DNA from: a virus
Lineage: Duplodnaviria > Caudoviricetes
Virus record (IMG/VR): IMGVR_UViG_3300033498_000048
Location: 32,001-96,000 of that record
DNA: 64,000 nt
Reading direction: 5' to 3' (one strand)
In this document: piece by piece, positions 389-37,214 of the stretch
Position numbering within the stretch: position 1 is the stretch's first letter
How the letters are laid out: each line of letters opens with the position of its first letter
Program-made: the position numbers and the translations under genes
The notes under the pieces: generated by a model
Database searches by the model: none
What the model saw: only the letters and a program-made list of their open reading frames with translations
What the model was told of the DNA's origin: nothing

Positions 389-411
389 ACACACCTCTAA
401 GGTTAAATATG

Positions 412-419
412 TATTTATA
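412..419 (-). promoter_or_regulatory. T4-type late promoter TATAAATA
   Basis: Exact reverse complement (tatttata) 23 nt upstream of ATG 388. Confidence 0.7.
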
Positions 420-614
420 TTCACCAATTATTAAGATAAGTCAATACCCTAGTTTCTGCAATTTCTTCAATTAACGCACACGCCAATCTCAATAAATATG
501 TATGACAAGAACTATATTGTGGATTTAATTTATTACTATATAAATTTCATCTGTAATCATACCACTCAACACCATCTTTAAAAGACACATTTCTATGGTT
601 TCTACCAATTTGTT

Positions 615-818
615 TCATAATACACATCTCCAACATTCAACTACAGAATCATCATCTTCAAATGTAAAACCTAAACGCATTGTTTCGTTGTGGGTCGTGA
701 TTCCCTTTACAGTATTAACCTTATTACCAGATTTAAATGGTTTATTTGAACGCTTTTTAACTAGCTGTCCTATTAGGTGTTGATATAGGTCGACACTTTC
801 ATTCTCAAATTTTTTCAT
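615..818 (-). CDS. Small conserved-type phage hypothetical protein
   Basis: 67 aa, GGAG RBS; KKRSNKPFKSG...VEC pattern recalled from myovirus hypotheticals. Confidence 0.75.
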   Translation of the reverse strand: MKKFENESVDLYQHLIGQLVKKRSNKPFKSGNKVNTVKGITTHNETMRLGFTFEDDDSVVECWRCVL

Positions 819-830
819 AATAATTGACTC

Positions 831-1421
831 CTAACTAAGATTAATTGATTGTCCACAGAATGGACAATATTTAATGTCAATAACATCTTCACCCACCATC
901 TTAACATTCCGATTTTCACACACTCCCACAATTGTAGATGAGTAATCAATTCCATCACTTAATGTATATTTCCCATTGCAAGATTTTTTAGTAAGTGGAT
1001 CCATATCTTCAATATGCACAAATCCATCACGACCAACATATAACCGGAACACATCACCAATTTCCTCACCTTGGGCTTGCATTTCGCCAGTTAGTCCAAA
1101 TTCTGGAAATTCCTCACGCATGAATAATATAATAAGATTAAGCTCCTCAATTGGTATAAGGTATTCATCATAAGCTTCAATACCCGTTTCATCATCTTTG
1201 ATTGTTGTTGTAATCAAGCTATCAATTGAATCTTTTAAAACATCTGGGTATTGAAGCTGGTATTTTTTAAATAGGGTTGGAATGTGAATTGCCTCTTTTT
1301 TTGCCCTTCTTTCAGCGTTACCATATAAAGATTTAAGACGATGATATTGTGCATCGGTCAATTCATTAACAAAATTTAGTGAACCTGAATAACTTACTGA
1401 ATAACTCATAATAAACTCCAA
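831..1421 (-). CDS. Hypothetical protein with C-terminal Zn-ribbon; paralog of 43486-44037
   Basis: GEMQAQGEEIGDVF and YCPFCG shared with the 43486 ORF; likely start at the MSYSV Met. Confidence 0.8.
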   Translation of the reverse strand: MEFIMSYSVSYSGSLNFVNELTDAQYHRLKSLYGNAERRAKKEAIHIPTLFKKYQLQYPDVLKDSIDSLITTTIKDDETGIEAYDEYLIPIEELNLIILFMREEFPEFGLTGEMQAQGEEIGDVFRLYVGRDGFVHIEDMDPLTKKSCNGKYTLSDGIDYSSTIVGVCENRNVKMVGEDVIDIKYCPFCGQSINLS

Positions 1422-1819
1422 AAATCAAATGTTAAATTTCTTCATAGTTCCAAGATACTGGAGAATGATTTTTTACAAAATGGTCGTAAGCTGCTTTTGA
1501 ACTAGCGTAAACAACATCTTCAAAATTTCCAGATACAGTTCCACACATTGGGTGTGTGGCTACAAAATCATTGATAAAAGGTAATAATCCTCATTTACTT
1601 CTGTTGTAATTGTCCAACACTTGAATGTTGTTTTGAATATTGTTTATGTTATTCAATATCACTATAAGCAAGTTCTGTAACACACTCTGGACTCAAAGTT
1701 ACAGCAGAAGTGATGTTGTCAACATTTGGTTCAATTTTAAATGGCAGCTTTTTATTTTTCATATAATGTCCTTAAAAAGATGGAATCTAATCCACAATAG
1801 TCAAGTATTCAGTATTATA

Positions 1820-2002
1820 TCAAGCGAACTCTGCTATATCTATTAACAACACATCAATATCAGTATAAAAATGTTCAAGCGTTGGTTCAGTCGTTACAAT
1901 GCTACCACCTTCAATATGGTCTATTGTAAATTTCATTTTAGCTAAGTCATTGCCTTGGCTTTGGATTGTTTGTAAATATTTTAAAACATCTAGTGCTGTC
2001 AT
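1820..2002 (-). CDS. Hypothetical protein
   Basis: 60 aa, GAGGT RBS, co-directional with neighbours. Confidence 0.6.
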   Translation of the reverse strand: MTALDVLKYLQTIQSQGNDLAKMKFTIDHIEGGSIVTTEPTLEHFYTDIDVLLIDIAEFA

Positions 2003-2083
2003 TTTAATTAAACCTCTAACTTGTGTGAAATTTGATTTGTGTAATATACATACATTAAAAACAATTGTAAACCTAAATCGTGT

Positions 2084-2335
2084 TCATTGTCTAAGCTGTG
2101 TAATAAGTTCAGCAAGTTCAACTTCCCTTGACTTTAATCGTTTACATTGTAATTCCAATTCTACACTAAATTTTTTAGATTTTTCGTGTCTATAGTTTTT
2201 GAGGTCAACTAAATCTCCATAGTATTCATTTACCCAATCAACAAATTGTTCATCGGATAGTGTTCCCAACCTGATTTCTTCATAAACATCATTACACGAT
2301 TTAATGGTCATAATGGTTCTCCAGATGGCAAACAA
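2084..2335 (-). CDS. Hypothetical protein
   Basis: 83 aa ORF; probable start at MTIKSC overlapping the upstream stop. Confidence 0.6.
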   Translation of the reverse strand: MFAIWRTIMTIKSCNDVYEEIRLGTLSDEQFVDWVNEYYGDLVDLKNYRHEKSKKFSVELELQCKRLKSREVELAELITQLRQ

Positions 2336-2586
2336 GGTGTGAAAATGACACCTACACCTGTTCCATCACCAACAGTACACCGTACATTAAGGTAATCGGA
2401 ACAGTATGTGTCCGAAAATAAACACCCTTTGCAGCTACCATTTGCCTCTACAATAACATTCTTAACTGCTGTTTTTCTTGCTTCCCTAATTCCTTTGCTT
2501 AGTTTTAGAATCGCTCCAACTGGGTATATAGTAGGAGTGGCTTTCCTAGAGTCTCTGGAAAAGTCTTTAAGTTTTAATTTTGGCAT
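2308..2586 (-). CDS. Cys-rich hypothetical protein (C-x-GC-x-F family); paralog of 51944-52219
   Basis: SCKGCLF...C...C...G.GV.F pattern; GGA RBS; promoter at 2706-2734. Confidence 0.7.
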   Translation of the reverse strand: MPKLKLKDFSRDSRKATPTIYPVGAILKLSKGIREARKTAVKNVIVEANGSCKGCLFSDTYCSDYLNVRCTVGDGTGVGVIFTPCLPSGEPL

Positions 2587-2705
2587 GGTTATTATCCTAT
2601 TTGATTTGTCTTACAAGTCAAGTATATTGATAACATCTTTACACAACCAATTAATTAAGATTTTGTGTAAATTGTCTTGTGCTGTCATTGTTAATTAAAA
2701 ATAGA

Positions 2706-2734
2706 ATTATACTTAGTTTGAATTTCAAAGTCAA
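2706..2734 (-). promoter_or_regulatory. sigma70-type early promoter
   Basis: TTGACT-17-TATAAT. Confidence 0.75.
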
Positions 2735-2934
2735 CTATTAATTTATTTTTCAATCGCATCAATTGCAATGATTTACAATTACTTGCGAAAAGTCCAAGGA
2801 CTTATATTCTATTCTGTCAAATAATGACTTAAGTGAACCATACCATTTATTATCTGAATATACCCAAACTTCTGATTCATTATTAATAACAACGGCGAAC
2901 TTACCAAGCTCATTAAAAAAATCAAACTCATATT

Positions 2935-3168
2935 TTACAACACAATAAACTCTGGAATCTTAATTGCAATAATATCATACTCGCTACTATATGTCCAATT
3001 CATATCAGACATTGCCTCAATCAATTTAATCACTTCACCCACAATATCAGTCATAATGGTTCTCCAGTTTCTGTACACCGTTTTAAGATTATAGCCACGC
3101 CAGACTTTGAATATACCTTGGCACAAGTAAGGTATTCCGTGCAGTTGAATAGTGGTAATAATAAGCAA
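2935..3168 (-). CDS. Hypothetical protein (start uncertain)
   Basis: 77 aa ORF; the shorter MTDIVGEV start has a GGAG RBS. Confidence 0.45.
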   Translation of the reverse strand: MLIITTIQLHGIPYLCQGIFKVWRGYNLKTVYRNWRTIMTDIVGEVIKLIEAMSDMNWTYSSEYDIIAIKIPEFIVL

Positions 3169-3186
3169 TTGTCACAAGTGAGCTGT

Positions 3187-3465
3187 TCACATCATTGTCT
3201 GTAAAAATGCCAATGTATTATCTGTCCAGTCAACCCACACTTTTAACGTTGGATTAGCGATGAGGGTTTCAACAATTTTTGCTGTGTAATCACAATTTCC
3301 ACCCTCAGCACATTTATATTGTGCCAAAAATCTTTTATTGTTCTTGCCATGATTACTATCTCCTTCTCCTAAATGATTATCTATAAACTGTGTGTGAAAG
3401 TATAAAGCAAAATAAATCAAATGTAAAGGTTTATTTGTCATTAGCAGTTCTAGGAGGTATAACAA
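3187..3465 (-). CDS. Hypothetical protein
   Basis: 92 aa ORF; listed TTG start lies in a repeat arm, so the true start is probably downstream. Confidence 0.55.
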   Translation of the reverse strand: MLYLLELLMTNKPLHLIYFALYFHTQFIDNHLGEGDSNHGKNNKRFLAQYKCAEGGNCDYTAKIVETLIANPTLKVWVDWTDNTLAFLQTMM

Positions 3466-3539
3466 ACTATCAATGACTTAGCACTTGGAACTATTATATA
3501 ACTAAGACCATACCGTAAGTGCTAAGTCATTGATAGTTT
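3464..3539. repeat. Palindromic element, single copy (perfect 23-bp inverted arms, 30-nt core)
   Basis: aaactatcaatgacttagcactt / ggaactattatataactaagaccataccgt / aagtgctaagtcattgatagttt. Confidence 0.95.
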
Positions 3540-3648
3540 ACTTTGTAAACACCACGTTACATCCTGTAAATCAGATTGGATTCGATATAAGCTAAACTCA
3601 TTGCATGGAATAAATATTCGTACAAGGTCGTCACTTGTATATGAATAG

Positions 3649-3965
3649 TTATCTACCAAAATAACTAACTATAGATATAATTCCATTGGATATTATCTTG
3701 TGAAGATGGTGTCCAAGTAATACATTATCACAATTTACAATTGGCTTACAGTGTAAGAAATCACTGAACCCTATTTGTTCTATGGTTATTGCTGGTATAT
3801 TAATTGGAACAAATATTGTCGATAACATTTCATTTGGAATATCTGACCAAGCTAACCACTTTTGCCACGAACTTTTTGCATCAGATACAAGTAATTCATC
3901 TAAAAGCAAAATCGGACTAATAACTTTGGTATTCGCAATCTTTGCTACATTGCTGTATTTTTCAT
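3649..3965 (-). pseudogene. Hypothetical gene apparently frameshifted in an A5 run just after ATG
   Basis: ATG 3965 with AAGGA RBS stops after 6 codons; one extra A gives an open MKKYSNVAKIANTKVISPILLLDE... joining ORF 3649-3909. Confidence 0.5.
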
Positions 3966-3966
3966 A

Positions 3967-5598
3967 TTACACTATAATCCTTGACATAATCTCTTGGTTT
4001 AATGCTATGCCCATTAAATCATTAGCAGTTTTTGGGTTTTTAACTGAACTATCAATTTGATTGCCCATTAAAAATCCTATGGTAGAACCGTTATATCCAC
4101 TCATATAAAACACATTTTCATTATCCCCGTATGTTTCAAATTTTGCTGTGGACTTTTTACCATAAAATGAATTTGGAATATCCCAAAATACAAATACAAA
4201 TTCGTCAACAAAAACACTAGGGAATCCACCTAATAACAATTCATTTTTAAAGCCTTCAACATTTGTTAATGTATCGGATTGACCAGCTTTATCAAATTCA
4301 CCATCACTTAAACACAATATTCCAGTAGGAAACCGTGATAATTCAATTCCAGATTTTAAAAAGTCAACAAATGACGTAGCCACTGCTAATAAGTTAGTTG
4401 AACCAACATTTTCTGAATTATCATTTTGGATTCTTTCAACTGGTGTTAATCCATTCCAAACCTTTAATGTTGCGTCAGTTCCAAACTCATAAAAAATGTT
4501 ATTAAATGGACCAGTCAACATATAACTGAAAAACAATGCTAATGATTTTCCAATATCATAACTAGATACTTTTAATCCATAAGCATTATCTGTCATTGAT
4601 AACGATGTATCGAGAACCGTAATAAAGTTGGCTTTTCGATTTACATTATTGGATGCCAATTCGACTAAACCCATAAATTGTTTATTGATTGTCATTGTTT
4701 CCATCAATGATAACTTTTTATTAGTGTGATTGGACTTAACTTTAGCTAACAATTCAAATGGATAGCCAGTATATTTAACAACAGGTTTATTATCAATCCA
4801 AGTTAAATACCTATCGGTTAAATTGTGTTTTTCTAAAAACTTAGATGAAACAAGTTTAGATAATGCTCTCCCTGGAATTGAATTAAAATCCAATTGTGAC
4901 ATCAATTGTTTACTGATTTGTTGCTGCCATGTGTTTGCAGTTCCACTTGATTTCAATTCACGGTACTTTTGATATGGACTAAAATCTCCACGTTTAATTT
5001 TACCAAACATCGTTGTGGCTAAATGTTTTGCAATATAATGTCTAGCTTGTATTCTTGGTGTCTTATTGGCAATATTTGAACTAATTGATGGTAAGTACAT
5101 TTTCACCAATCCAGTAGTTTGTGGATTTTCTAATCCAGCTAATATCAAATTAGTGAATGCTATCCAATTAAGTTTTCTATTAGCCCAACCATTATGCTCT
5201 AAATCATAAGTTAGCATTTGAAAAATGTCTTTCCATGACCCAGCACAAATAATCAATTCAATGTTGTTCCAAAATAATTCTGGAACAATTCTAGCTAACC
5301 ACATTGCCCTAATAATTGATTCGTGTTTTAAGCCTTGTCCACGTTGTACCGTTTCAGTAATTGTTCCATCAAAGAATTTAACTTTTCTATCAATTAATCT
5401 AAGATATAAGGTTAAAGCCAACGTTTTGTGTGGACATTGTGAATATAACAATCGCATATCAGCACTAATTGATTCCCATGTTCTAATTTCACGATAATGT
5501 GACACAGAACCAAACTGGTCAATAAAATCATCACCTGTTGTAGCGTACTTTAATGCTCCATTACCTGATTTTATTCCCACTGAATTTTTATTAATCAT
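3967..5598 (-). CDS. DUF2828 / TROVE-like protein with C-terminal vWA domain (Ro60-related)
   Basis: 543 aa; N-terminal ENGALK/STG-type start, LYLRLIDR, G.WKD; MIDAS-like VLDTSLSM and LCLSDGEFD; VFWDI. Confidence 0.75.
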   Translation of the reverse strand: MINKNSVGIKSGNGALKYATTGDDFIDQFGSVSHYREIRTWESISADMRLLYSQCPHKTLALTLYLRLIDRKVKFFDGTITETVQRGQGLKHESIIRAMWLARIVPELFWNNIELIICAGSWKDIFQMLTYDLEHNGWANRKLNWIAFTNLILAGLENPQTTGLVKMYLPSISSNIANKTPRIQARHYIAKHLATTMFGKIKRGDFSPYQKYRELKSSGTANTWQQQISKQLMSQLDFNSIPGRALSKLVSSKFLEKHNLTDRYLTWIDNKPVVKYTGYPFELLAKVKSNHTNKKLSLMETMTINKQFMGLVELASNNVNRKANFITVLDTSLSMTDNAYGLKVSSYDIGKSLALFFSYMLTGPFNNIFYEFGTDATLKVWNGLTPVERIQNDNSENVGSTNLLAVATSFVDFLKSGIELSRFPTGILCLSDGEFDKAGQSDTLTNVEGFKNELLLGGFPSVFVDEFVFVFWDIPNSFYGKKSTAKFETYGDNENVFYMSGYNGSTIGFLMGNQIDSSVKNPKTANDLMGIALNQEIMSRIIV

Positions 5599-5622
5599 GT
5601 TTATTTCCTTTAGTCAATATCT

Positions 5623-5883
5623 AACAATCAATGACTTAGCACTTGGAACAGGTTATTAATTACTTAATAGCTGCAAGTGCTAAGTCATTGATTGTTGGTT
5701 AAGTTACCATTCATACTCAATTATAAAGAATCAATAGGTTAGCACTTACATGGGTGTATTAGTTATATAACCGTTCTAAATGCTAAGTCATTGATTGTAT
5801 TATCATTCATTGTCATCTACTATAAATCAATGAGTTAGCACTTGGACGTTGTTACTGATTACCTAATCACGTCCAAGTGCTAA
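5623..5883. repeat. Array of three palindromic elements
   Basis: Units 5623-5696, 5729-5796, 5825-5883 (last right arm truncated); cores 30, 30, 31 nt. Confidence 0.95.
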
Positions 5884-5891
5884 AACTAGCT

Positions 5892-6194
5892 TCATTTGGT
5901 TTCGGCATCTTTAAAAACAGGTTGTATGAAGGTATTAACCTTTAAAATAACATCATTAACATTCACATCATCAATTGATATAGAGTAATCAACAACTTGT
6001 TTATTACCATAATTGATTAATTGAACTCGAATACGATTTAACCAGATAAAGATTAAGATGTTGATGTCAGGATAATCTGATTTGTGATACAAGCACGGAA
6101 AACCACATTGCGAACCAGATTGTAAGTCTACTCCAGTGATACCAGTTTTAACATTGTTGAAAATTTGATTTATTGTTTCATTCGTAAATGGCAT
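5892..6194 (-). CDS. Hypothetical protein bracketed by repeat arrays
   Basis: Track ORF to 6221; GGAG RBS favours ATG 6194 (MPFTNET). Confidence 0.7.
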   Translation of the reverse strand: MPFTNETINQIFNNVKTGITGVDLQSGSQCGFPCLYHKSDYPDINILIFIWLNRIRVQLINYGNKQVVDYSISIDDVNVNDVILKVNTFIQPVFKDAETK

Positions 6195-6213
6195 CTTAAT
6201 TTGCTCCGTATAT

Positions 6214-6668
6214 GTTAGCACTTGTAGTTATTAGGTAATTTGTAACACCTCTAAGTGCTATCTTGTTGATTTAATTGATAATAATATATACTAATATAAT
6301 CAATAAGTTAGCACTTAGAACAGTTATATAACTAAGACCAGACTGCAAGTGCTAACTCATTGATTCAAATGGCGTTTGATTAATTTAAGTTAATTCAATG
6401 AGTTAGCACTTAGGGCGTGTTACAAATTACCTAATGCCTGTAAGTGCTAACTCATTGATTCTTATGTAATACGATTTATATCAATTAATTCAATAAGATA
6501 GCATTTGGAGCGTGTTATAAATTACTTAACGACTGTAAGTGCTAACTCACTGATTTTTATATAATATAATTTACCTCAATTAAATCAATAAGATAGCACT
6601 TGGAGTCTGGTCTTAGTTATATAACTGTTCTAAGTGCTAACTCACTGATATACACACTGTTAGCATTT
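6214..6668. repeat. Array of five palindromic elements plus a trailing half-site
   Basis: Units 6214-6271, 6298-6365, 6393-6460, 6488-6555, 6583-6650; 95-bp period; half-site gttagcattt at 6659. Confidence 0.95.
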
Positions 6669-6677
6669 GCCTGATGG

Positions 6678-6908
6678 TTAATTTAAAAGTCTCCTATACA
6701 AATAACAATTAAGCTCTTTGTCAGACTTTATTGGAAAATACTCGTCTAATACTTCATCACATATCCAATAATCAGAACCACTAAAATCTATTTGTGGATA
6801 ATCATGCTTTAATTGTGATGAATATAATGTCTCACCTCGGTCTATACAATATCGTTGCGATATACTAATATACCCAGCTAATATTGCTTCAATTTTAAAG
6901 ATACTCAT
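6678..6908 (-). CDS. Hypothetical protein
   Basis: 76 aa, GAGGTG RBS. Confidence 0.65.
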   Translation of the reverse strand: MSIFKIEAILAGYISISQRYCIDRGETLYSSQLKHDYPQIDFSGSDYWICDEVLDEYFPIKSDKELNCYLYRRLLN

Positions 6909-7020
6909 TTACACCTCTTAATGGAACATATCCATGCTCGATAAACTTTTGTTTAAGCTCTTCCAATGACATTGAGTTAATACGTTCCATAGCTCGTTTA
7001 GCCAATTCTTGAATGTTCAT
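6895..7020 (-). CDS. Small hypothetical protein (41 aa)
   Basis: Below track cutoff; GGAG RBS; MNIQELAKRAMERINSMSLEELKQKF...; overlaps the next start. Confidence 0.55.
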   Translation of the reverse strand: MNIQELAKRAMERINSMSLEELKQKFIEHGYVPLRGVNEYL

Positions 7021-7050
7021 TTCACTTCTCCAATGTTTTTGATTGTGTTA

Positions 7051-7189
7051 GTTAGCACTTGCTGGATTCAGATATATTAACGATGTCAAAGTGCTTTCCA
7101 GTTAATATTCAATATCAATTAAAACAATGAGTTAGCACTTGGAGCTGTCTATTAATTAACTACCACTTGTAAGTGCTAACTTATTGTTT
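7051..7189. repeat. One degenerate and one intact palindromic element
   Basis: 7051-7095 (28-nt core); 7122-7189 (30-nt core) overlapping the stop of ORF 7188. Confidence 0.9.
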
Positions 7190-7433
7190 AATATCGTTTA
7201 TCTTGTTTTGACACCCATTCCCAAGCGGATTCTTCACTTTCAAAAACGTGGAATTGGGCAAAATGAATCTTTCTGTGTTTACAGTTTCTAATATCTAAAA
7301 AACTACCATTGTCATCTCCAGTTATATGATTCACAACATTAGTTGTCTTAAAATCTCTGGTTCCATTTTTATATCGAAGTTCAAGTATATTATACATTTT
7401 CATTAAACCTATCAATTGATTTGAATATTGCAT
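7188..7433 (-). CDS. Hypothetical protein
   Basis: 81 aa ORF; likely start at the MKMYNILE Met overlapping the upstream gene end. Confidence 0.6.
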   Translation of the reverse strand: MQYSNQLIGLMKMYNILELRYKNGTRDFKTTNVVNHITGDDNGSFLDIRNCKHRKIHFAQFHVFESEESAWEWVSKQDKRY

Positions 7434-7704
7434 TTAAGTTTTTAATTCCAACTGGATTAGCAGAATGAACTTGTAATTTTAATTGACTTGGATATTGTCC
7501 GTTATATGCCAATTCTTCTAAGTATTCAGCAATCGGAATGCTAGTTACTGGAATATCATTAATTGTTCCTAAGTCGTGGTCAAATGATATAACAGTTATT
7601 CTTTCTATAGATTCTTTTATCAGTTCCATAGCAGATTCTAAATCCCTAACTAATATCCAAGAACTGTCTGGTTGGTCTCTAATATCATCAATATATATTT
7701 TCAT
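7390..7704 (-). CDS. Cyclic-phosphate-processing receiver-domain protein
   Basis: KIYIDDIR...W..VR, ISFDHDLG, HSANPVG motifs; GAGGAG RBS. Confidence 0.8.
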   Translation of the reverse strand: MKIYIDDIRDQPDSSWILVRDLESAMELIKESIERITVISFDHDLGTINDIPVTSIPIAEYLEELAYNGQYPSQLKLQVHSANPVGIKNLNAIFKSIDRFNENV

Positions 7705-7723
7705 ATAAAACTCCTCATAATAA

Positions 7724-7791
7724 AATCAGTAGGTTAGCACTTGGAACGGTTATATAACTAATACCACGTTGTAAGTGCTAACTCATTGTTT
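7724..7791. repeat. Palindromic element, single copy
   Basis: aatcagtaggttagcactt / 30-nt core / aagtgctaactcattgttt, between a stop (7804) and the next RBS. Confidence 0.95.
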
Positions 7792-7803
7792 CGTATAGAA
7801 CGG

Positions 7804-8130
7804 CTAAGGAGCTATACCGACATCATAAGAATAATTATCACCATCACAATATCGCTCCACCCAATCTAAATATTCCTTAGATGGTTCATCATGTGTACAT
7901 ATTGAATATTCGCCTTTACCGTTACTCCACTTTCTTATCGAGATTTCCATTTTAGTGTTTTTTATGATTCTAGCTATCTGGTCTAATACCCACGCTTTAT
8001 GGTGTGAACCATCTATTTGTCCATATCGAAATAGATAATGTTCTATCCAATCTTCTTTAGTGTAATCTTTATATGGAGTGTTTTCTATATCAACTGGAAA
8101 TAGACCCAAATATCGTACTTCGTCTTTCAT
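7804..8130 (-). CDS. Conserved-type phage hypothetical; paralog of 50984-51310
   Basis: TPY..Y...DW...YGQIDG.HHKAWVLDQIAR, GIAP end. Confidence 0.75.
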   Translation of the reverse strand: MKDEVRYLGLFPVDIENTPYKDYTKEDWIEHYLFRYGQIDGSHHKAWVLDQIARIIKNTKMEISIRKWSNGKGEYSICTHDEPSKEYLDWVERYCDGDNYSYDVGIAP

Positions 8131-8262
8131 ATTTCAACCTCATTTAATTTTAGGGTTAGCTGGCTGTTGATTATAAAACTTTTATGTGATGTTCTATTGG
8201 AATGATAGTAATTGATTCTATCGTATGGATTTCACTACCTTCATATCCATACGGCATAAACT

Positions 8263-8577
8263 TTATGTGTTTTTTTCACATTTACTCCTTTGTTGTTTTC
8301 TAATATTAACACCACACATTAATAATTCTTCCCTCAAATTATTATCAAACGGATATTGTCTTAACTTACTAGCAAACATTCCATATCTATCAATTACTAA
8401 TTTGTTATCATTCAAAAGAACATAATATCCCTCTAAACTTTGTTGACAGATTTGAATTTGTGCATTTAATAATTCATATTCGTTGACATATCCCAATAAC
8501 ACATCTTCATTATCATATAACGGTATTCTAACATAATCAATAGTTTTCAACTCAATCATTCTTATTCTCCAGTTCAA
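8263..8577 (-). CDS. Hypothetical protein
   Basis: 104 aa ORF; probable start MIELKT with GGAG RBS. Confidence 0.6.
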   Translation of the reverse strand: MNWRIRMIELKTIDYVRIPLYDNEDVLLGYVNEYELLNAQIQICQQSLEGYYVLLNDNKLVIDRYGMFASKLRQYPFDNNLREELLMCGVNIRKQQRSKCEKNT

Positions 8578-8583
8578 CTTTAC

Positions 8584-8844
8584 CTAAAAACTAGGTCTAT
8601 ATTTCAACTTATCATATTCACTCTTGTCAATTAATTGTAGTTTTTTACCAATTAAGGTTTGGTTATAACAATCTATTATAACCAAACCAACTGCTTTCAA
8701 ATCCCAACCACATTCATTGCACCACACATGACCATCTATAGAGTTTAATATCGTATGGTTATCACCTACAATCATTGCATATTGGCTAGTCATTGACATT
8801 CCAATATTATCAAATTTTACTCCATTCACACGTTCAATATTCAC
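8584..8844 (-). CDS. Hypothetical protein
   Basis: 86 aa, GTG start, AAGGAG RBS. Confidence 0.65.
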   Translation of the reverse strand: MNIERVNGVKFDNIGMSMTSQYAMIVGDNHTILNSIDGHVWCNECGWDLKAVGLVIIDCYNQTLIGKKLQLIDKSEYDKLKYRPSF

Positions 8845-8866
8845 AACTAACTCCTTATAATAATTA

Positions 8867-9028
8867 AATCAATAAGTTAGCACTTATTGGCATTAGTTAA
8901 TTAGTAACACCGTCCAAGTGCTAACCTACTGATTTAATTGAGTATAATATACACTAATATTATCAATAGGTTAGCACTTGGACCAGTTAAGTAATTAATA
9001 CCACGTTGTAAGTGCTAACTCATTGATT
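8867..9028. repeat. Array of two palindromic elements
   Basis: 8867-8934 and 8961-9028; 30-nt cores, 26-nt linker. Confidence 0.95.
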
Positions 9029-9032
9029 TATA

Positions 9033-10247
9033 TTACACTAATATAATTGTGTTGAATTTAGTACGACTGAGTGCAGTGTACAAACAACGCAGTTTTTCTT
9101 CAATAGTTCCAGGCATACTTAAGATGTCTTTTGTGTTGATTACTGTAGTATCATACGATGACCCCTGGGATTGATGTGCAGTTAAACAATATGAATGTTT
9201 AACATGAATAAACGTATCTCTAAATTTATAATAATCTTTCCAAGTAAACGATTTATCACCTTTAGCTAATTGATTTCCCATTTCAGTTAATATGGAATTT
9301 AAACCAATTCTATCTTGTGGAGCAACAAAACTATTGTTAATGACTAATGATGGAATTTCAAATTTTACACTTCCAACTTTGATTATTGAATTATGTGGCT
9401 CTATATCTTCAACATCAATAATATCACCAATATTCATTACAATGGTGTTATTAGTATCAAGTTTATATGGACGCTGTAATATCAACGATTCGTTCTTTGA
9501 GTATATGAACTCTGCATTTGGATAAATTGTTTGATGACATAAATCATTTAGATTATCTACAACTACATTCCTATACGCAATAGCCGAACAGTTTTTGGTA
9601 TTTAACTTATTAGCCATTTGATTCAATATTGAAATGAAGTTATCACTTTTACGAATTATAATAACACTTCTGGTGATTCCATCTTTTCCAACGATTTGTC
9701 CAGAAAACTTAGATAAGTCTGGAATAATATTCGTTTTTGACAATATTAATGTGCGTAACAATGCCAATAATGGTCTTATTGGATGATTAACATTCGTTTG
9801 TCTCATTTGTTCAGTTAATGTGATACTTTCATGTACCAAAGAAAATGCTGGACTATAATTTAAATTTACTGGAAATAATTGTGCTTCATCTCCAACAATA
9901 ACAATCTTAATATGTTTTAATCGTTTAACTCTTGAACATATTATATCATCAACCATACTACCTTCATCTATTACTAATACATCATATTGTGTAGATTTAC
10001 ATTCACCTTTTTTGTCAATACTGACAACTCCAGTATATTCATTTACAACTAAGCCTAAGAATGAATATATCGTCATACAATCAATTTGATTACAACCCAT
10101 TTCAATTAGTACATTCACAGCTTTGTTAGTTGGAGCTGTAAATGCTATACGAACATTCTTTGACACCTGTTGTAATAAATACGTTTTCCCAGTTCCAGCT
10201 TCACCGTATAGCCCTATTCGTTTATCCCTAGGGCTATTCATAATCAA
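9033..10247 (-). CDS. dda: SF1B DNA helicase (T4 Dda / RecD-like)
   Basis: Walker A GEAGTGKT, APTNKAV, DEGSM, VGDEAQLFPV, LTEQMRQ, LTAHQSQGSSYD, LYTALSR. Confidence 0.85.
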   Translation of the reverse strand: MIMNSPRDKRIGLYGEAGTGKTYLLQQVSKNVRIAFTAPTNKAVNVLIEMGCNQIDCMTIYSFLGLVVNEYTGVVSIDKKGECKSTQYDVLVIDEGSMVDDIICSRVKRLKHIKIVIVGDEAQLFPVNLNYSPAFSLVHESITLTEQMRQTNVNHPIRPLLALLRTLILSKTNIIPDLSKFSGQIVGKDGITRSVIIIRKSDNFISILNQMANKLNTKNCSAIAYRNVVVDNLNDLCHQTIYPNAEFIYSKNESLILQRPYKLDTNNTIVMNIGDIIDVEDIEPHNSIIKVGSVKFEIPSLVINNSFVAPQDRIGLNSILTEMGNQLAKGDKSFTWKDYYKFRDTFIHVKHSYCLTAHQSQGSSYDTTVINTKDILSMPGTIEEKLRCLYTALSRTKFNTIILV

Positions 10248-10306
10248 ATCAACAGCATTATTTTGTAATTGATTTAATTTAATTTTATATCACTCCACAA
10301 CTTTAG

Positions 10307-10729
10307 TTACCGATTATCGTTATCAATTATCAAATCAGACTTTGGATTAAAAATGAACAATCTAAGTTCTTCTTTAGACAAATCAGCAGTTGTGCCACTC
10401 GATTGGTGGTCAATGTAACTATCTTTATCAAGGTCATACACAACAGAAGAACATCCTGTTTGTTCCATAATAACTTCCGTTAATAAAGCTAACTTGGAAT
10501 AACTATGCTGATAATCTACAGCTACATAATTTGCCTTAGTTATGGCATCATTATATTCTTCATAACCCCAACCAAACTCACCTCCAGTCAACGTTACAAC
10601 ACCATCCTCATTAACTGGTAATGTTTCTAATAACTCATCCGTATCACTAATTGAAATTGAATGAGTTGAGGATGAGTTAGTTTCAAATACATCTTTTCTA
10701 ATTATTTGCTTCATTTTGTTTTCCCTCAA
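10307..10729 (-). CDS. FETNSSSTHS-family phage protein
   Basis: IRKDVFETNSSSTHSISI, FGWGYE, YIDHQS; tandem paralog of the next ORF. Confidence 0.8.
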   Translation of the reverse strand: MRENKMKQIIRKDVFETNSSSTHSISISDTDELLETLPVNEDGVVTLTGGEFGWGYEEYNDAITKANYVAVDYQHSYSKLALLTEVIMEQTGCSSVVYDLDKDSYIDHQSSGTTADLSKEELRLFIFNPKSDLIIDNDNR

Positions 10730-17457: not shown

Positions 17458-19329
17458 ATGGCAGACCAATATTACAATAATGTTCAATTTGCATTAAGTT
17501 TAAATGGAGACTTCTTAGATTGGAGTAAACATAACAGAAGTGTAACAATTGATTCTGGAATTATAATGTCAAATAGTGTTATTAAATATGGTTCATATTC
17601 AGCCTATTTTCCAGCTGCTGTTAGTAGAACTATGTTGATAGATTACATTGATTGGACACCAAATACCGATGATTATACTATAGAGTTTTGGATAAATGCA
17701 ATAAAAGCAAGTTCACCAGCAAATGTCTTTTTAATTGGACAATATAGAGATTCCAATAACTTTTGGAAACTATACCTAAATTCAATTAATAATGATGTAA
17801 TATTGACATCATCCTCTGGAACCACCATTACAGCATCAAATTCATTTTTAAACAATTGGAATACATGGAATCATGTTGTAATGGTTCGGTATAATTCAAT
17901 TACCTCAATTTACATTAATGGTGCTGTAGTATTAACTGGAAACTTTACTATACCTACAATCAATGAACCAATTTTAATTGGAGGTTTACAACATTCAGGG
18001 ACTAATGAGTTCTTTGTTGGATATTTAAGTGATATTAGATTCACTAAAGGGATAGCAAGATATACATCTAATTTTAATGTCCCAACACAATTATTAGAAC
18101 AATCATCATTAAAAACAGTTTTGATTCAAACTATAGATTCAATTAGTTGCATTAATCCACAATGTAACTTTGATGTTTATATTGTAGGCTCTGGTAAAGT
18201 TAAATCATTTGTTAGTAATAGTTATGGGAACATTGTAATTAAAGTTCCAGAGGATGTTGTTGTCGAATTAACTGCGTATGCTACTGGATATAAAAAAGCC
18301 AGATTAGAGTTTAAATCATGTCCTGATGTCGTTACATTGAACTTAAATAGAATAGTTAATTCAAATTCTGATACAATACAACAACTATTACCATTAATAT
18401 ATTTTTCATGTGAAAATGATTCCAATGGTATATTAGCCAATTCTGGAATTACATCTGGACAAATGTCATTATTGAATACCAATTATATTACAAAATTAAA
18501 TAGTTTGATTTATGGAATTTATTACCAATTATCAGATACAATTGAACTGAATCCGATTAATAATGGTTGGACTGGTTTAAATGGATTAACTGATAATACA
18601 ACAGGCTACCAAAATATCACAACGACTGGAGGTAGCTATTGTTTTTGGGTAAAACCTACCAAATCAATTGTAATTTATAACGAGTCAATAACTGGAAATT
18701 ATGCTGACAATTTAGACCAAAGATTTTTAATTACTCCAGAATACAGTATTAACAACGTGTTTTATGGAATATCAATAGGCATTAATGGCATTCAATTTTA
18801 TATGCGAAAGGGAACAACCTTTTCTCCAGTATTAACTTGGATTAACGATTTGTCTAATTGGAATCATATTGTATTAACGATTAATTCAAATGGAGTTCCA
18901 ACATTATATATGAATGGAATATTCATTAAATCGACAAATTATGTTCCAGTTGGTGATAGGTATCTGGGATTAAACATTGGAACAGATACCAGTGGAAATA
19001 GACATTCATTTGCTGGCTCATTTACTGATATGTGTTTATTCGGTTATGATGTTAGTATTCCAAACATTAATAGAATAATGAATAGTCAATTGAAATATAA
19101 AATACAGGGAAAGGTTGTAGATTCAAATGGTAATGTTAAACCAAGTATAATTAGAGCTTATTCACATGAATCTGGAGAGTTAATTGGTGAATGTACAACA
19201 GATATTGATGGGGATTATGTCTTGATAACAAGTTCAAATGTTGCTAGTTATGTTACCTGTTTGCAATTAGATTGTGATGATATTTCAAGTGAAGGAATGA
19301 TTTACACTAATGTCATTCCTTCGTTATAA
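17458..19329 (+). CDS. LamG/concanavalin-repeat virion protein (fibre / receptor-binding candidate)
   Basis: Two LamG-like repeats (YTIEFWI..WNHVVMVR..YING..SDIRFTKG); C-terminal KIQGKV..IRAY..G module. Confidence 0.8.
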   Translation: MADQYYNNVQFALSLNGDFLDWSKHNRSVTIDSGIIMSNSVIKYGSYSAYFPAAVSRTMLIDYIDWTPNTDDYTIEFWINAIKASSPANVFLIGQYRDSNNFWKLYLNSINNDVILTSSSGTTITASNSFLNNWNTWNHVVMVRYNSITSIYINGAVVLTGNFTIPTINEPILIGGLQHSGTNEFFVGYLSDIRFTKGIARYTSNFNVPTQLLEQSSLKTVLIQTIDSISCINPQCNFDVYIVGSGKVKSFVSNSYGNIVIKVPEDVVVELTAYATGYKKARLEFKSCPDVVTLNLNRIVNSNSDTIQQLLPLIYFSCENDSNGILANSGITSGQMSLLNTNYITKLNSLIYGIYYQLSDTIELNPINNGWTGLNGLTDNTTGYQNITTTGGSYCFWVKPTKSIVIYNESITGNYADNLDQRFLITPEYSINNVFYGISIGINGIQFYMRKGTTFSPVLTWINDLSNWNHIVLTINSNGVPTLYMNGIFIKSTNYVPVGDRYLGLNIGTDTSGNRHSFAGSFTDMCLFGYDVSIPNINRIMNSQLKYKIQGKVVDSNGNVKPSIIRAYSHESGELIGECTTDIDGDYVLITSSNVASYVTCLQLDCDDISSEGMIYTNVIPSL

Positions 19330-26100: not shown

Positions 26101-29100
26101 ATGCTACATGAAAATAGCTTATATGTTGACAACATTGCATCTAGGAAAGAAATTTTAAAAAATAAAACTAAAGTGATGGACACATTGATGTTTAATTACT
26201 TCGGGTTTATAGCATTACTTGCCACAAAGCCATCAGACTCAGGTATATTAAAAACATATAAGAATAAAGATAAGTCCGTTAGTTTGGACAAAATAGATTA
26301 TTCAAATAGCGACATTTGCATATCAATACTTTTAGCTATTGATTCTGGTATTATTGATGATTCCATTGCTGAAAAGATGTTGACATTGTTTTCAAAGCTG
26401 CGAAATGGAATCATCAATGCTGATAACTTTGATAATAATAGTTTAATAAACTTGTTAATAAAAACCAAGTATCAAGTTAATAAACCATCATCCGCAATAT
26501 TATCAATTGTGGATTCATATACTGGAAATGGTGATATTAATCAATTTGTATTAGACTTGGTTGAAGCAGCAAATAATTCCAAATATAAAGACTTAACGTC
26601 TGAATTTAGAGCTGTCACTAAACTTGTGTTTAAATATGACACACTACCAGATGATGTTTCAATGCCAACTAAAGCAATTGTTGCAAAGGGAACAATTGCT
26701 CGCGCCCAACAATTAGCAAGGGCGGAAGCAGGTGCTGAAAAGTATGAACAAGATACATTTAATAATAGTTTGAAAACTGCTTGGACAGAGGTTAAAGCAA
26801 ATAGTCCAGCTCAATTTGAAATATTCTACAAACTATCCAGCGTTAAAGAAATGGAAGAGTTTGTAACCACACATCCAATATTTGATATTGATAAGTTTGT
26901 GGTGTGGTTAAATGTTACTTACATTAAAAACCAATTTCCAGCTGAAAATACAAATGTTTTATATGATTATCTATTTGGATTATTCAAAACAGAAAGAAAA
27001 ACACATTTTGATGTTATTGGAAAACTATTAGTGGATAAAATATCTTATTATTCCCAATCAATGTCAGTTGATGATATAGTAAAAACATTCGGTGTATTTA
27101 AGCCATCTAATAATATATTGGATTCATCTATAACAAGTGCAATGGAATCAGTTGCAGATTTAGTTCTTGACCATTTAGTTCACAAGTATGAAACTATAAC
27201 TCCAGCCAACTTTAAAGAACTTAAAGATTATACTACAAATTGTATTCGTTTGTTGTCTAATTATGGAACATCCGTACATAGACGATTAGGTGATGTGATA
27301 GCCCAATTATTAAAATCTATGGGTACTAATCAGTCCAAGTCTAATGATAGTGCTAGGGCATTTTGTTCATTATATTCTACTGGTGTGATTTATATTGATG
27401 TCCAATCTAGTAAATACACAAGATATTTAATTGAATTTCTAAATAATTATTTTGAATACGATGTGTTACAATCACAGAAAAAGTTTAATGTGAGTATATA
27501 CGATAGCTTATATCAATTGATGTCACAAGACCAACGGGATTTAATCGACATTCTGAGAATGTCCATTTCATATAAAGTTGAGTTAGTTGTTGTTCCTGAA
27601 TATGTGAGGTTAAAGGATTTATTCGATGGGGTTATTGCTAATGAATCTACACTTGATAGCTTAGTAAAGAATTTAGCATCTTATAGGTTGAACGATAATG
27701 ATTATGCTAAGTTTGTTGAGAATAGTAGAAGATACATTGTGACTGGATATGATAAATTCATGGACATATACCCAACATTAATCAATTCTAATAACAATAA
27801 TCCAAATACAATTGGAATGGTTGTTAGATTGTACAAAGATTTATTCACATCACTAAAAGATAATCCAATACCAAGTACAACTAAATCAAAACGTGTTATA
27901 ACAGATATAATTGAGCGTATGGCGAATTTGTGTGAACATGAAAAAGATTACACCATATTAAATACAATATTTGATTCAGTAAACATATCTGATTTATATT
28001 CAATAGCTAGTTTATTGTCCGATGATACTAAGTACATATTTTATACATGGATTAATAATAAGGCAAATGTTGATATTGATTTCCAATCATCTATTGTTAA
28101 TGGAACACCAGATACTTTAAGTGGATTTGTAGATTCAATTATATACAACCCACAAAATACTTTTTTGATAGAATCATTAGATGTAGCAGTTAAGTTTGTC
28201 ACTATGTTTTTATCTGATAATCCGTACACATCTGATGGAATGTCTGAAATTCCAGACTATATGATTAGGTTATACAATAAACACCCAACATTAAGAGATG
28301 TAATATTAAATAAAATTCTTACAGATTCAACATACAAGTTACTTGAAGCTGCTATCAATATGTATAAAGAAAGTGTGTTTTCGTTATTGTTAAATGCTAA
28401 TGGAAAATTGATTCCAGATGATAAAACAACTAATTATATTGTGTCTTATATTAGAGCTAATATTTCAAACATACCAAGCCTTGAATATTTTAAGGGTTCA
28501 GATTATATATTAAATGTGATTAGTAATGAAATAAAATCACAAGTTATCACTAAAGTACAATTAGCTCCAGAAGAATCACTTGCATTACTATCAAGTCAAG
28601 CGTGTGATGTTGATTTATTAAATGATATACTCACAGACACTGATATTGTAAAATCTTACAAAGAATATATCACGACATCACCTGAAATATTTTCTACCAA
28701 TATGCACAAAATATTCAATAAAGTAATAACACATCCACATAATGTTAATATGAATACTGCGAATAACTTATTGAATGTGATTAAACATTTTGAATCAAAC
28801 AAATCACTATTGAAATCATCAGAAAGGAACTCACTTGTAAACTTATATTTTGAAATTGTGATTAACATATATTTAAAACAACCTGAGTCTGCTGATATTA
28901 TTTTTGATAAAGTTGGAACTAAAATGCAACAAAGTATGTTAGAGTACGTTGAACAATTTGCATTTGTAGAGTCAGCAATGAAGTCAATTACATCGGATTC
29001 TAATCCTATAAAACCTATGATTAAACTCGATAGAGATAAAATATGTAGTGTATTAGCTATTAACAGAATTAAACTTCCAGAAAACACCAAAGTTGAATAT

Positions 29101-30093
29101 ATAAAGGGAATGAAATTAACTGATATGTTAAAAAAAGGTGGAGTTCAACCAGAAAATAACATAATCACTGATTTACAATTAACCCCAAAAACAAAAACAA
29201 AAACGGAGTTAGAAGAACTATCAATCGAATACGATAAAAAGTTTAATAATAAAAATGAAAGTGGACAATATTCATATATGTTTATGGACGAATATGATGT
29301 GAGAATCCAACTGCAAGCTGATGGAATAAAAAAATTCATAGAAAACAATCCAGATACTGAGATTATGGACATAGCGTTCCACGGTACTGGAACACTAGCA
29401 GCTAGTATGATTTTACGTTATGGATTCAATGTTATTACAGAACAAATGGCAGAAGAATCTGGAGTAAAATTTGCAGGTAGAAGTTTGGGTGATGGTATTT
29501 ACTTTTCAGATGCGATTGATAAAGCTGGTTCTTACGCTTATGACAATGATGCCACAACCGATGGTTTAGGTGGATATATATTCATTATGAAAGCTGCTTT
29601 GGGACATAAAGGAAAACAATATCAAACATATAAAGGTTATAATAACGAGTGGTGTGTATTCTTTCCGAATGAACAATTGATGATTTATAAGGCATATAGG
29701 ATTAAAGCTGTTAATCCTGGAACATTTAGTAGAATTGTTGCGAAACACAAATTAAAAGAAAATTACACTGGCTTCACAACGTTTGCAAACTTCATAAACG
29801 AAGCTGAACTTATCCAATCAGATAACATCCAACAAAACGGTGATGCTATGGGAACTATAAAGCTAATTTTTATGGATGGTACATTGCCTTTAAATAATGA
29901 TGTTACAATTGACTCAACATCATTTAGAGTTGACGATGACAAAGCTTCAATAGTTAAAACAATGCGTGGAACAGAACTAACAATTAATGCGAATAATAAC
30001 GTGAATATATCACACAAAATTCCATTTACCAAAACCTTTATGGTTAGACATCCAGAATTATTAAAACTTGTATTGGGTGTAATTAAACAATAA
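26101..30093 (+). CDS. Large putative virion-injected protein with PARP-type (H-Y-E) ADP-ribosyltransferase domain
   Basis: FHGTG...ILRYGF, GRSLGDGIYFSDAIDKAGSYA, YNNEWCVF; late promoter; AAGGA RBS; L-H-E N-terminal and I-N-E/A internal protease-like sites. Confidence 0.8.
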   Translation: MLHENSLYVDNIASRKEILKNKTKVMDTLMFNYFGFIALLATKPSDSGILKTYKNKDKSVSLDKIDYSNSDICISILLAIDSGIIDDSIAEKMLTLFSKLRNGIINADNFDNNSLINLLIKTKYQVNKPSSAILSIVDSYTGNGDINQFVLDLVEAANNSKYKDLTSEFRAVTKLVFKYDTLPDDVSMPTKAIVAKGTIARAQQLARAEAGAEKYEQDTFNNSLKTAWTEVKANSPAQFEIFYKLSSVKEMEEFVTTHPIFDIDKFVVWLNVTYIKNQFPAENTNVLYDYLFGLFKTERKTHFDVIGKLLVDKISYYSQSMSVDDIVKTFGVFKPSNNILDSSITSAMESVADLVLDHLVHKYETITPANFKELKDYTTNCIRLLSNYGTSVHRRLGDVIAQLLKSMGTNQSKSNDSARAFCSLYSTGVIYIDVQSSKYTRYLIEFLNNYFEYDVLQSQKKFNVSIYDSLYQLMSQDQRDLIDILRMSISYKVELVVVPEYVRLKDLFDGVIANESTLDSLVKNLASYRLNDNDYAKFVENSRRYIVTGYDKFMDIYPTLINSNNNNPNTIGMVVRLYKDLFTSLKDNPIPSTTKSKRVITDIIERMANLCEHEKDYTILNTIFDSVNISDLYSIASLLSDDTKYIFYTWINNKANVDIDFQSSIVNGTPDTLSGFVDSIIYNPQNTFLIESLDVAVKFVTMFLSDNPYTSDGMSEIPDYMIRLYNKHPTLRDVILNKILTDSTYKLLEAAINMYKESVFSLLLNANGKLIPDDKTTNYIVSYIRANISNIPSLEYFKGSDYILNVISNEIKSQVITKVQLAPEESLALLSSQACDVDLLNDILTDTDIVKSYKEYITTSPEIFSTNMHKIFNKVITHPHNVNMNTANNLLNVIKHFESNKSLLKSSERNSLVNLYFEIVINIYLKQPESADIIFDKVGTKMQQSMLEYVEQFAFVESAMKSITSDSNPIKPMIKLDRDKICSVLAINRIKLPENTKVEYIKGMKLTDMLKKGGVQPENNIITDLQLTPKTKTKTELEELSIEYDKKFNNKNESGQYSYMFMDEYDVRIQLQADGIKKFIENNPDTEIMDIAFHGTGTLAASMILRYGFNVITEQMAEESGVKFAGRSLGDGIYFSDAIDKAGSYAYDNDATTDGLGGYIFIMKAALGHKGKQYQTYKGYNNEWCVFFPNEQLMIYKAYRIKAVNPGTFSRIVAKHKLKENYTGFTTFANFINEAELIQSDNIQQNGDAMGTIKLIFMDGTLPLNNDVTIDSTSFRVDDDKASIVKTMRGTELTINANNNVNISHKIPFTKTFMVRHPELLKLVLGVIKQ

Positions 30094-35870: not shown

Positions 35871-36385
35871 TTTCAATGAGTTAGCACTTATAGGTGTTGG
35901 GTAATTAGTAACCTGTTCCAAATGCTAACCTATTGATATTGTTAGTGTATATTATTATCAATTAAATCAATAAGTTAGCACTTATAGGTGTTGGGTAATT
36001 AGTAACCTGTTCCAAATGCTAACCTATTGATATTGTTAGTGTATATTATTATCAATTAAATCAATAAGTTAGCACTTACAGTTTGGTATTAGTTAGTTAA
36101 TGGTTGCAAGTGCTAACTCATTGATTTGTAGTAATTGACAATGATGACACATGGACACGATATATTGATAACCAAGAATCAATGAGTTAGCACTTGGAAC
36201 AGGTTACTAATTAACCAACACATACAAATGCTATGTCATTGATATTTAACACCTAACTAATTGGCTAACAGAATCAATGACATAGCATTTGCAGCTATTA
36301 TATAATTAACTAACACCTCTAAGTGCTAAGTCATTGATAGTTGGTGCTATTGATTGTTTAGTTGAAAATCAAAGGGTTAGCATTT
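35871..36385. repeat. Array of five palindromic elements plus a half-site, including a perfect 94-bp tandem duplication
   Basis: 35871-35938, 35965-36032, 36059-36126, 36177-36244, 36272-36339; half-site 36367-36385; 35880-35973 identical to 35974-36067. Confidence 0.95.
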
Positions 36386-36706: not shown

Positions 36707-36737
36707 GTTAGAAACCCCTGTTAGTTAATGAAGACGC

Positions 36738-36767
36738 ATTATAATACAACCTACAGATTAACGTCAA
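36738..36767 (-). promoter_or_regulatory. sigma70-type early promoter
   Basis: TTGACG-18-TATAAT. Confidence 0.6.
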
Positions 36768-36797
36768 TGCGTTAGGAATTTAATAATTCGTTCCGAT

Positions 36798-37179: not shown

Positions 37180-37187
37180 TATAAATA
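37180..37187 (+). promoter_or_regulatory. T4-type late promoter TATAAATA
   Basis: Exact match, 27 nt before ATG 37215. Confidence 0.75.
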
Positions 37188-37214
37188 TTATAAAAATTAA
37201 CAAGAGAAACTAAT

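Follow-up and report, generated by a model that had tools for sequence, protein, structure and literature searches.

Phased 68-bp dyads between the genes of a T4-like phage: candidate protein-docking sites at gene boundaries

Between positions 3464 and 9028 of a 64,000-nt stretch of viral DNA, referred to here as the window (positions 32,001–96,000 of the 305,782-bp virus record IMGVR_UViG_3300033498_000048), genes stand singly or in short blocks, and the spaces between them are occupied by copies of a palindromic element. What is the role of these elements? An earlier note on this DNA read the layout as an integron-like array of gene cassettes using a site other than attC, or alternatively as a series of transcribed hairpins acting as RNase III-like processing sites. 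The source is an uncultured phage that is T4-like as judged from its encoded proteins and promoter motifs. We propose, tentatively, that the elements are double-stranded DNA (dsDNA) docking sites for a putative sequence-specific protein, forming intergenic boundary modules and likely points of exchange.

The element is a 68-bp dyad, in which an arm AATCAAT-RRG-TTAGCACTT and its inverse enclose a 30-bp polar core centered on TAATTA. The consensus derived from the aligned copies reads AATCAAT-RRG-TTAGCACTT for the first arm, GGAAC-N-GTTA-NN-TAATTA-AT-A-CCAC-NN-TGC for the 30-nt core, and AAGTGCTAA-CYY-ATTGATT for the second arm. The half-site TTAGCACTT is present 57 times in the window, compared with 0.5 expected from shuffled sequences. 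Facing half-sites make up 95 pairs genome-wide, 81 of which are separated by exactly 30 nt. Searching the whole genome with a profile built from 68 oriented copies yields 116 members of the family, all of them intergenic. They are distributed over 41 of 475 gaps (29 between genes of the same direction, 7 divergent and 5 convergent), with 1–5 copies per gap in the region 3464–9028 and up to nine elsewhere in the genome.

The copies have diverged from each other (median of 17 differences in 68 positions between pairs, minimum of 4), yet blocks of sequence are invariant, and each of the six positions of the central TAATTA is kept in 70–80 of 81 copies. The persistence of invariant blocks in old, diverged copies implies purifying selection on the sequence. 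The centers of neighboring elements are 94–96 bp apart in 30 of 61 pairs, and the linkers between elements measure 28–30 nt in 32 of 44 cases despite their differing sequences, in which TAATTGA(G/C) motifs recur. With 95 bp being close to nine helical turns, this row spacing suggests selection on helical phase. Together with the conserved blocks that are not paired, the 94–96-bp spacing points to protein docking on dsDNA. It is noted that one conserved 28-nt linker type, TTAATTGA(G/T)(T/A)ATAATATACACTAA(T/C)A(T/A)T, joins neighboring elements in about 12 copies, on either strand; its positions in the window include 8936–8959, 6273–6296, 35940–35963 and 36034–36057. This linker type holds a perfect TATAAT, and its orientation relative to the genes is inconsistent.

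The two halves of the core are anti-correlated, with 7 Watson-Crick pairs at positions 33/44 where 37 would be expected, so that each element has a polarity. The polarity is random with respect both to gene direction and to the nearest promoter, and rows can read, for example, '++---' or '-+------+'. A promoter of the AR9 type (AACA-N6-TA) was considered for the core; as core polarity bears no relation to gene direction, the idea was abandoned.

The arms provide a further indication of how a protein could be recruited. The IHF consensus WATCAANNNNTTR is found in 159 of about 232 arms; outside the elements, it occurs at 0.21 per kb, equal to the chance value of 0.18 per kb. In the proposed mode of action, each arm would pair this IHF-type consensus with an invariant GCACTT block for protein docking. 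The sites would occupy the DNA that separates a stop codon from the following promoter or ribosome-binding site (RBS), serving as intergenic boundary modules, and some 100 dispersed look-alikes in a phage that replicates by recombination would be likely to become preferred points of homologous exchange. The elements would then work like the promoter-early stem-loop (PeSL) cassettes of T4-type phages, and not like the attC sites of integrons.

Several observations weigh against the docking-site proposal. GCACTT is the most invariant block of the arm and lies outside the IHF consensus. No binding protein was identified, neither HU/IHF nor HrcA homologues were found in the phage, and IHF may be absent from the host. 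Where promoters accompany the rows (see below), the -35 box lies anywhere from -3 to 87 nt from the row, a range that shows no fixed activator geometry. Elements are also located in tight convergent gaps of 66 and 80 bp and in stop-codon/RBS gaps inside apparent operons, places with no obvious regulatory job for a DNA site and into which a hairpin or a selfish repeat fits naturally. Finally, a relative of the phage has no element at three comparable junctions, which argues against an essential local function.

In the region 3464–9028, six gaps between genes of the minus strand contain 13 clear copies of the element and a degenerate one. The region belongs to a long series of small genes on the minus strand, most of them orphans; 8 of the 10 small proteins of the region have no PHROG family match, and 9 of the 10 have no Pfam match. 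The features, with open reading frames (ORFs) given by the length of their products in amino acids (aa), are as follows.

3466–3537: single 68-bp dyad element with perfect 23-nt arms
3649–3909, minus strand: ORF of 86 aa that has no homologues and shares its frame with the upstream ORF, in the area of a 'frameshifted ORF' of the earlier note
3967–5598, minus strand: DUF2828/DUF7788 (TROVE/Ro60-like) protein of 543 aa, 65% identical to the copy in contig L212 of a relative
5624–5695, 5727–5798 and 5823–5883: row of three elements
5892–6194, minus strand: 100-aa ORFan
6211–6272, 6297–6366, 6393–6463, 6489–6557 and 6582–6651: row of five elements, with four full copies exactly 95 bp apart
6678–7020, minus strand: pair of overlapping small ORFs, of 76 aa and 41 aa, without homologues
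Within 7043–7190: degenerate element copy, with TTAGCACTT at 7052–7060 and AAGTGCTTT at 7089–7097 and a half-site spacing of 28 nt
7121–7190: full element, the end of which overlaps the stop codon at 7188
7188–7704, minus strand: cREC_REC-domain gene (7390–7704; 69% protein identity to the relative's copy) and an 81-aa ORF
7722–7792: single element, flanked by the 108-aa gene and the cREC gene and missing at the same junction in contig L025 of the relative
7804–8844, minus strand: block of three small genes of 108 aa (phrog_23179), 104 aa and 86 aa, with a gene remnant at 8131–8262
8866–8935 and 8960–9030: pair of elements with the conserved 28-nt linker TTAATTGAGTATAATATACACTAATATT between them
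9033–10247, minus strand: Dda-type SF1 helicase, with its stop codon 2 nt from an element

The layout described in the earlier note, with single genes or short blocks standing between elements, is borne out, and the gene blocks match those that it listed. The same is true of the placement of the elements between a stop codon and the next RBS. They begin 2–26 nt past the upstream stop codon or overlap it (2 nt for the stop codon at 9033, 11 nt at 7804, a 3-nt overlap at 7188, 26 nt at 6678 and 8 nt at 5892), and the distances to the next start codon, for the gaps in the same order, are 21, 17, 16, 25 and 24 nt. These 16–25 nt provide space for an RBS only. A frameshifted ORF suggested at 3522–3909 could not be verified; two overlapping ORFs without homologues are found there. 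The DUF2828/TROVE-like ORF at 3967–5598 is essentially full length compared with those of relatives. It should be mentioned that the same frame stays open for 105 further codons after its stop codon, to 3649 (3649–3969, minus strand). Because the relatives' ORFs end where the 3967–5598 ORF ends, this open frame is probably a separate in-frame gene. In two contigs of distant phages (L213 and L214; DUF2828 at 52% identity), the DUF2828 gene is flanked by tRNA genes and by AAGRTYNNTAACAGCAACTAAA-type repeats, possibly Y-RNA-like, and the 68-bp dyad is not present in either contig.

As to the genomic setting, the phage genome has direct terminal repeats, a G+C content of 31% and a completeness rating of 100%. 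Its T4-like markers are an encoded Gp23 major capsid protein (E = 2e-128), the Dda-type helicase and the T4 late-promoter motif TATAAATA, for which 26 of 45 occurrences in the whole genome are at most 60 nt upstream of genes. Many perfect TTGACA-N17-TATAAT promoters are present in the intergenic DNA, mostly on the minus strand. Megablast of the region 3464–9028 revealed no close relative among GenBank phages, and Rfam and tRNA scans of the window gave no match. Over the genome, gaps with elements are clustered: 19 of 40 inter-element blocks hold three genes or fewer, compared with 9.5 ± 2.4 expected (p about 5e-5), and about three dense zones exist in addition to the region described above (at approximately 11–15 kb, 116–121 kb and 281–297 kb of the genome). 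The cassette-like appearance is not a general rule, given that other inter-element blocks hold up to 54 genes. Genes adjoining elements are not shorter than the others, the median being 121 aa in both groups.

The relationship between elements and promoters bears on whether the elements are transcribed. A near-perfect TTGACA-N17-TATAAT sequence, with at least 11 of 12 positions matched, stands beside the row in 14 of the 41 element gaps, compared with 28 of the 184 other gaps that measure 40 nt or more. In these 14 gaps, the promoter is directly next to the downstream gene and the row is immediately upstream. The -35 box is fused to the outer ATTGAT of the element in four of the 14, which hints at a shared evolutionary history of elements and promoters. 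Fused promoters such as ATTGATTGACA are seen at 254221–254249, 281104–281132 and 116593–116621 of the genome, and at 36738–36767 of the window. None of the six gaps in the region 3464–9028 has a promoter, at a threshold of at least 10 of 12 positions, or space for one. Genes there must be read through the elements from far upstream, and this need for read-through argues against efficient termination in the region. The divergent gap at 36707–37214 of the window has four elements between an early minus-strand sigma-70 promoter and a plus-strand TATAAATA late promoter; with the row placed in this way, those two promoters do not transcribe the elements.

Two other kinds of promoter were considered and rejected. 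No legally spaced pair of sigma-70 hexamers exists within the element or its linkers, and the TATAAT linker type is found on either strand. For middle promoters of the T4 MotA/AsiA type, no match to AsiA or to the MotA C-terminal domain (MotCF) was obtained, in a family search that had no positive control. It is also noted that large plus-strand genes at 17458–19329, 37215–39068 and 55165–60386 of the window encode Laminin_G_3 (concanavalin-like) repeat proteins, probably fibers; the genes that start at 37215 and 55165 each have a TATAAATA late promoter, and each is preceded by a divergent gap that rows of elements fill. A 1330-aa protein encoded at 26101–30093 (plus strand) of the window has a weak match to the PARP catalytic domain (E = 1.3e-5, under the Pfam cut-off).

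Could the elements instead act as RNA hairpins, as terminators or attenuators, as stabilizers of mRNA 3′ ends, or as RNase III-type processing sites, in the manner of PeSL stem-loops and REP sequences? Among the alternatives this one survives best, and we consider it possible, if on the unlikely side. Every tested copy, when transcribed, is predicted to form a hairpin of 19–25 bp with a folding energy of -18 to -39 kcal/mol and a z-score between -2.7 and -11.7. The elements begin a few nucleotides past stop codons, single copies fill the 66- and 80-bp convergent gaps as bidirectional terminators would, and the 14 promoter-bearing gaps are ordered as stop codon, elements and strong early promoter. 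In a scan restricted to gaps, canonical intrinsic terminators are nearly absent from the genome, with 10 weak candidates over all gaps and none at 3000–10400 of the window, so that a terminator-like role of elements outside the region 3464–9028 may exist.

The pattern of substitutions, however, does not follow base pairing. Variable arm positions carry a purine on the left and a pyrimidine on the right, combined at random, and no pair of arm positions is clearly above the shuffles (34 Watson-Crick pairs at 12/65 compared with 37.3 expected). The largest pairing excess, 57 compared with 47.9 expected at pair 5/72 (about 2.7 standard deviations), is at the outer edge of the arm. Covariation of the RRG and CYY triplets, suspected by eye, was not supported by pairing counts against shuffles. 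In the sense RNA of the 56 copies between same-direction genes, there is no excess of G·U (47) over A·C (42). What would be the loop is conserved both in its TAATTA center and in its length. On the aligned copies, the evolutionary signal is on sequence and not on pairing. Moreover, termination does not need rows of up to nine helically phased copies, and no U-tract of canonical quality is present. In the region 3464–9028, the gene after an element follows with no promoter in between, and about ten genes would be silenced if termination were efficient. A search of the phage for an RNase III homologue found none, although the host enzyme could serve. The earlier suggestion of RNase III-like processing sites is therefore retained in so far as the transcribed elements would physically fold; the missing covariation, the missing sense-strand G·U bias and the copies between divergent promoters speak against the remainder. 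Hairpin formation may be a physical by-product of the DNA site, and may still matter.

The docking-site proposal and its alternatives can also be examined by comparison between phages. Comparable DNA came from one relative only, ENA assembly ERZ925373, in its contigs L025 and L212. The helicase and the cREC protein encoded on L025 (2.7 kb) are each 69% identical to those of the phage. On L025, a partial upstream gene is followed by the helicase, then by a TTGACA-N16-TATAAT promoter and a 72-aa gene, by one element, and finally by a 92-aa gene, the cREC gene and a 102-aa gene, compared with the helicase, two elements, the 86-aa and 104-aa genes, a remnant, the 108-aa gene, one element, the cREC gene and the 81-aa ORF in the phage. 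The L025 element, TTAGCACTT-N30-AAGTGCTAA, keeps the arms and their spacing around a different core, which indicates that arms and spacing are the conserved requirement. At the 3′ junction of the helicase, L025 has a sigma-70 promoter and no element, where the phage has two elements. The homologue of the 92-aa gene is 155 kb away in the phage, with no adjoining element. The remnant at 8131–8262 (minus strand; ...GYEGSEIHTIESITIIPIEHHIKVL*) corresponds to the C-terminal end of the gene that lies upstream of the Dda helicase on L025. It is downstream of the helicase in the phage and differs in frame from the preceding 104-aa ORF, as would a relocated and decayed, or a frameshifted, gene.

Contig L212 (5.6 kb; DUF2828 65% identical) has no element, including in the 40-nt gap upstream of DUF2828, where the phage has three. 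The genes downstream of DUF2828 in L212 (79, 104, 64 and 156 aa) have homologues at 400–3400 of the window, reordered and interleaved with unshared genes, and this part of the window contains no elements. The homologue of the L212 104-aa gene (2624–2938 of that contig) is split over two frames at 2774–3054 of the window (minus strand), probably by a frameshift. From these two contigs, it follows that the element family predates the split of the two phages and that individual copies come and go. Gene content around the elements is not invariant, and to that extent the earlier note holds: beside the helicase and upstream of the cREC gene, at junctions that carry elements in the phage, the relative has other genes. 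Two or three of the breakpoints against L025 and L212 coincide with phage elements, and at least three have no element in either genome (3′ of cREC, 3′ of DUF2828, and the reordering at 400–3400 of the window). With gene content changing equally where elements are absent, the elements can be at most one of several routes to plasticity.

No element was found in more distant relatives, with identities of up to 42% for those aligned by helicase and of 52–55% for those with DUF2828, and single-protein searches for related loci gave no match. Among the matches listed for TTAGCACTT-N(28-32)-AAGTGCTAA in IMG/VR and a metagenome collection, only single, unrelated and mostly high-GC occurrences are present. 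Two further close relatives, contigs P0003 and P0082 (64–66% identity), have suggestive gaps of 170–260 bp.

The gain and loss of copies would also be expected if the element were a selfish, mobile palindromic repeat (MITE- or REP-like), spread by a nuclease or transposase that recognizes the arms, with the cassette-like appearance as a by-product. The restriction to intergenic DNA, the occurrence in all types of gap and in either polarity, the presence or absence at comparable junctions of relatives, and the rows with recurrent linker motifs, as in BIMEs, are all consistent with such a repeat; an IHF-type site beside a conserved inverted repeat also recalls transposon ends in general. We regard it as unlikely. 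No Y1 transposase/RAYT (PF01797) match was obtained in the phage genome, nor a tyrosine or serine recombinase, and no near-identical copies exist. There is no target-site duplication; where the palindrome extends past the arms, the flanks form inverted and not direct repeats, and their excess is not significant (9 compared with 5 expected). The strict 28–30-nt linkers suggest selection on spacing.

A decoy function, in which the roughly 230 half-sites would titrate the host heat-shock repressor HrcA and thereby raise the level of chaperones for head assembly, is very unlikely. The CIRCE consensus is TTAGCACTC-N9-GAGTGCTAA, and 8 of the 9 arm bases match its arm TTAGCACTC; the spacer of the element is 30 bp in 81 of the 95 pairs and 9 bp in none, a decoy gives no account of the conserved ATCAAT and TAATTA blocks, and no HrcA gene is present in the phage.

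Least probable of all is an integron-like, site-specific cassette system in which the elements serve a recombinase as sites for the excision and insertion of single genes, and for the region 3464–9028 the practical result is negative. The modular layout on which the earlier note relied does stand, as does a variable gene content: promoterless single genes or short co-oriented blocks lie between elements, their content differs from that of the relative, and two inverted arms around an asymmetric core generally recall recombinase sites. Integron-like recombination does not. The complete genome gave no match for a tyrosine recombinase (PF00589), where the control matched in 14 of 14 genomes, and no match for a serine recombinase (PF00239). 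Crossover regions of tyrosine recombinases measure 6–8 bp, which the 30-bp core far exceeds. Gaps hold several sites of random polarity, convergent and divergent gaps included, it is sequence and not structure that is conserved, and reshuffling is equally strong where elements are absent. No clean excision or deletion joints were seen in the contigs of four DNA runs, a weak point because contigs cannot show rare forms. In contigs of the run that is probably the source, paralogous copies cross-map and nothing else is seen, all joints having short sides or extra letters between them; the three other runs gave only fragments of up to 265 nt.

Returning to the docking sites, it is plausible, though unproven, that homologous recombination among the approximately 100 copies contributes to gene turnover. 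A more ambitious version, which we put forward as improbable but worth stating, is that the dyads could be the cis sites of an undescribed punctuation system, in which a sequence-specific protein of phage or host origin, assembled on helically phased rows, would build nucleoprotein boundaries that insulate adjacent transcription units and channel homologous exchange, with small accessory genes swapped as units. If true, this system would be a protein-defined counterpart of PeSL cassettes and distinct from integrons. Host-adaptation genes of T4-type phages turn over in the hyperplastic regions, a process for which, to our knowledge, no agents other than the loosely defined PeSL cassettes have been described. 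The fixed internal spacing, the polar core and the phased rows point to a dedicated binding protein. Its identity would show whether large phages organize or insulate their early regions with chromatin-like arrays, and also whether such arrays guide gene exchange.

We have compared the elements with four known systems. The CIRCE operator shares with the arm TTAGCACTT/AAGTGCTAA 8 of the 9 bases of its inverted repeat; the phage elements differ in their 30-bp rather than 9-bp spacer, in being present in about 116 copies, in not being placed at chaperone genes and in having extra conserved blocks. Integron attC sites are imperfect palindromes of similar length (57–141 bp), located 3′ of short co-oriented promoterless genes. 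In contrast, the phage has no integrase, its elements are conserved in sequence and not in structure, several sites of random polarity occupy one gap, convergent and divergent gaps are also used, and GTTAGCA and TGCTAAC depart from the RYYYAAC/GTTRRRY core-site consensus.

The REP/BIME sequences of enterobacteria, especially the IHF-binding BIME-1 (RIP/RIB), are more similar. They too are imperfect palindromes outside genes, number about 100 or more, and stand just past stop codons, within operons and between convergent genes, in clusters that have recurrent linker motifs and an associated IHF consensus. The 116 copies described here are clustered extragenic palindromes with conserved linker motifs in just this sense. 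They differ in being carried by a phage and not by a bacterial genome, in a unit that is twice as long and has its own conserved center, in a row orientation that is not strictly alternating, and in that no RAYT (Y1 transposase) gene was found in the phage genome.

The closest published system is that of the PeSL cassettes of T4-type phages (Arbiol et al. 2010, PMC2839356; Comeau et al. 2014, PMC4122927). These are defined by their promoter, their stem-loop is variable and often G/C-rich, and both mini-circles and terminator activity have been demonstrated for them (PMC2839356, PMC4122927). The likeness includes a T4-type phage with approximately 50–100 dispersed intergenic motifs that appear to be concentrated among small orphan genes, the placement of the motif between an upstream stop codon and a downstream Shine-Dalgarno sequence, the capacity to form a hairpin, the frequent junction with a strong sigma-70-type early promoter (14 of 41 gaps in this phage), and a gene content beside the motifs that differs between relatives. 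The phage differs in that the conserved part is a strictly built 68-bp dyad whose core is always 30 bp long, in that the promoter is optional and absent from the six gaps of the region 3464–9028, and in its rows of up to nine copies with 94–96-bp phasing, which are undescribed for PeSLs. Full-text literature searches found no published description of a 68-bp dyad family, and the repeat is apparently undescribed, with a stricter build than the PeSL and the same genomic niche. By these comparisons, the elements look like a phage counterpart of REP/BIME or PeSL punctuation.

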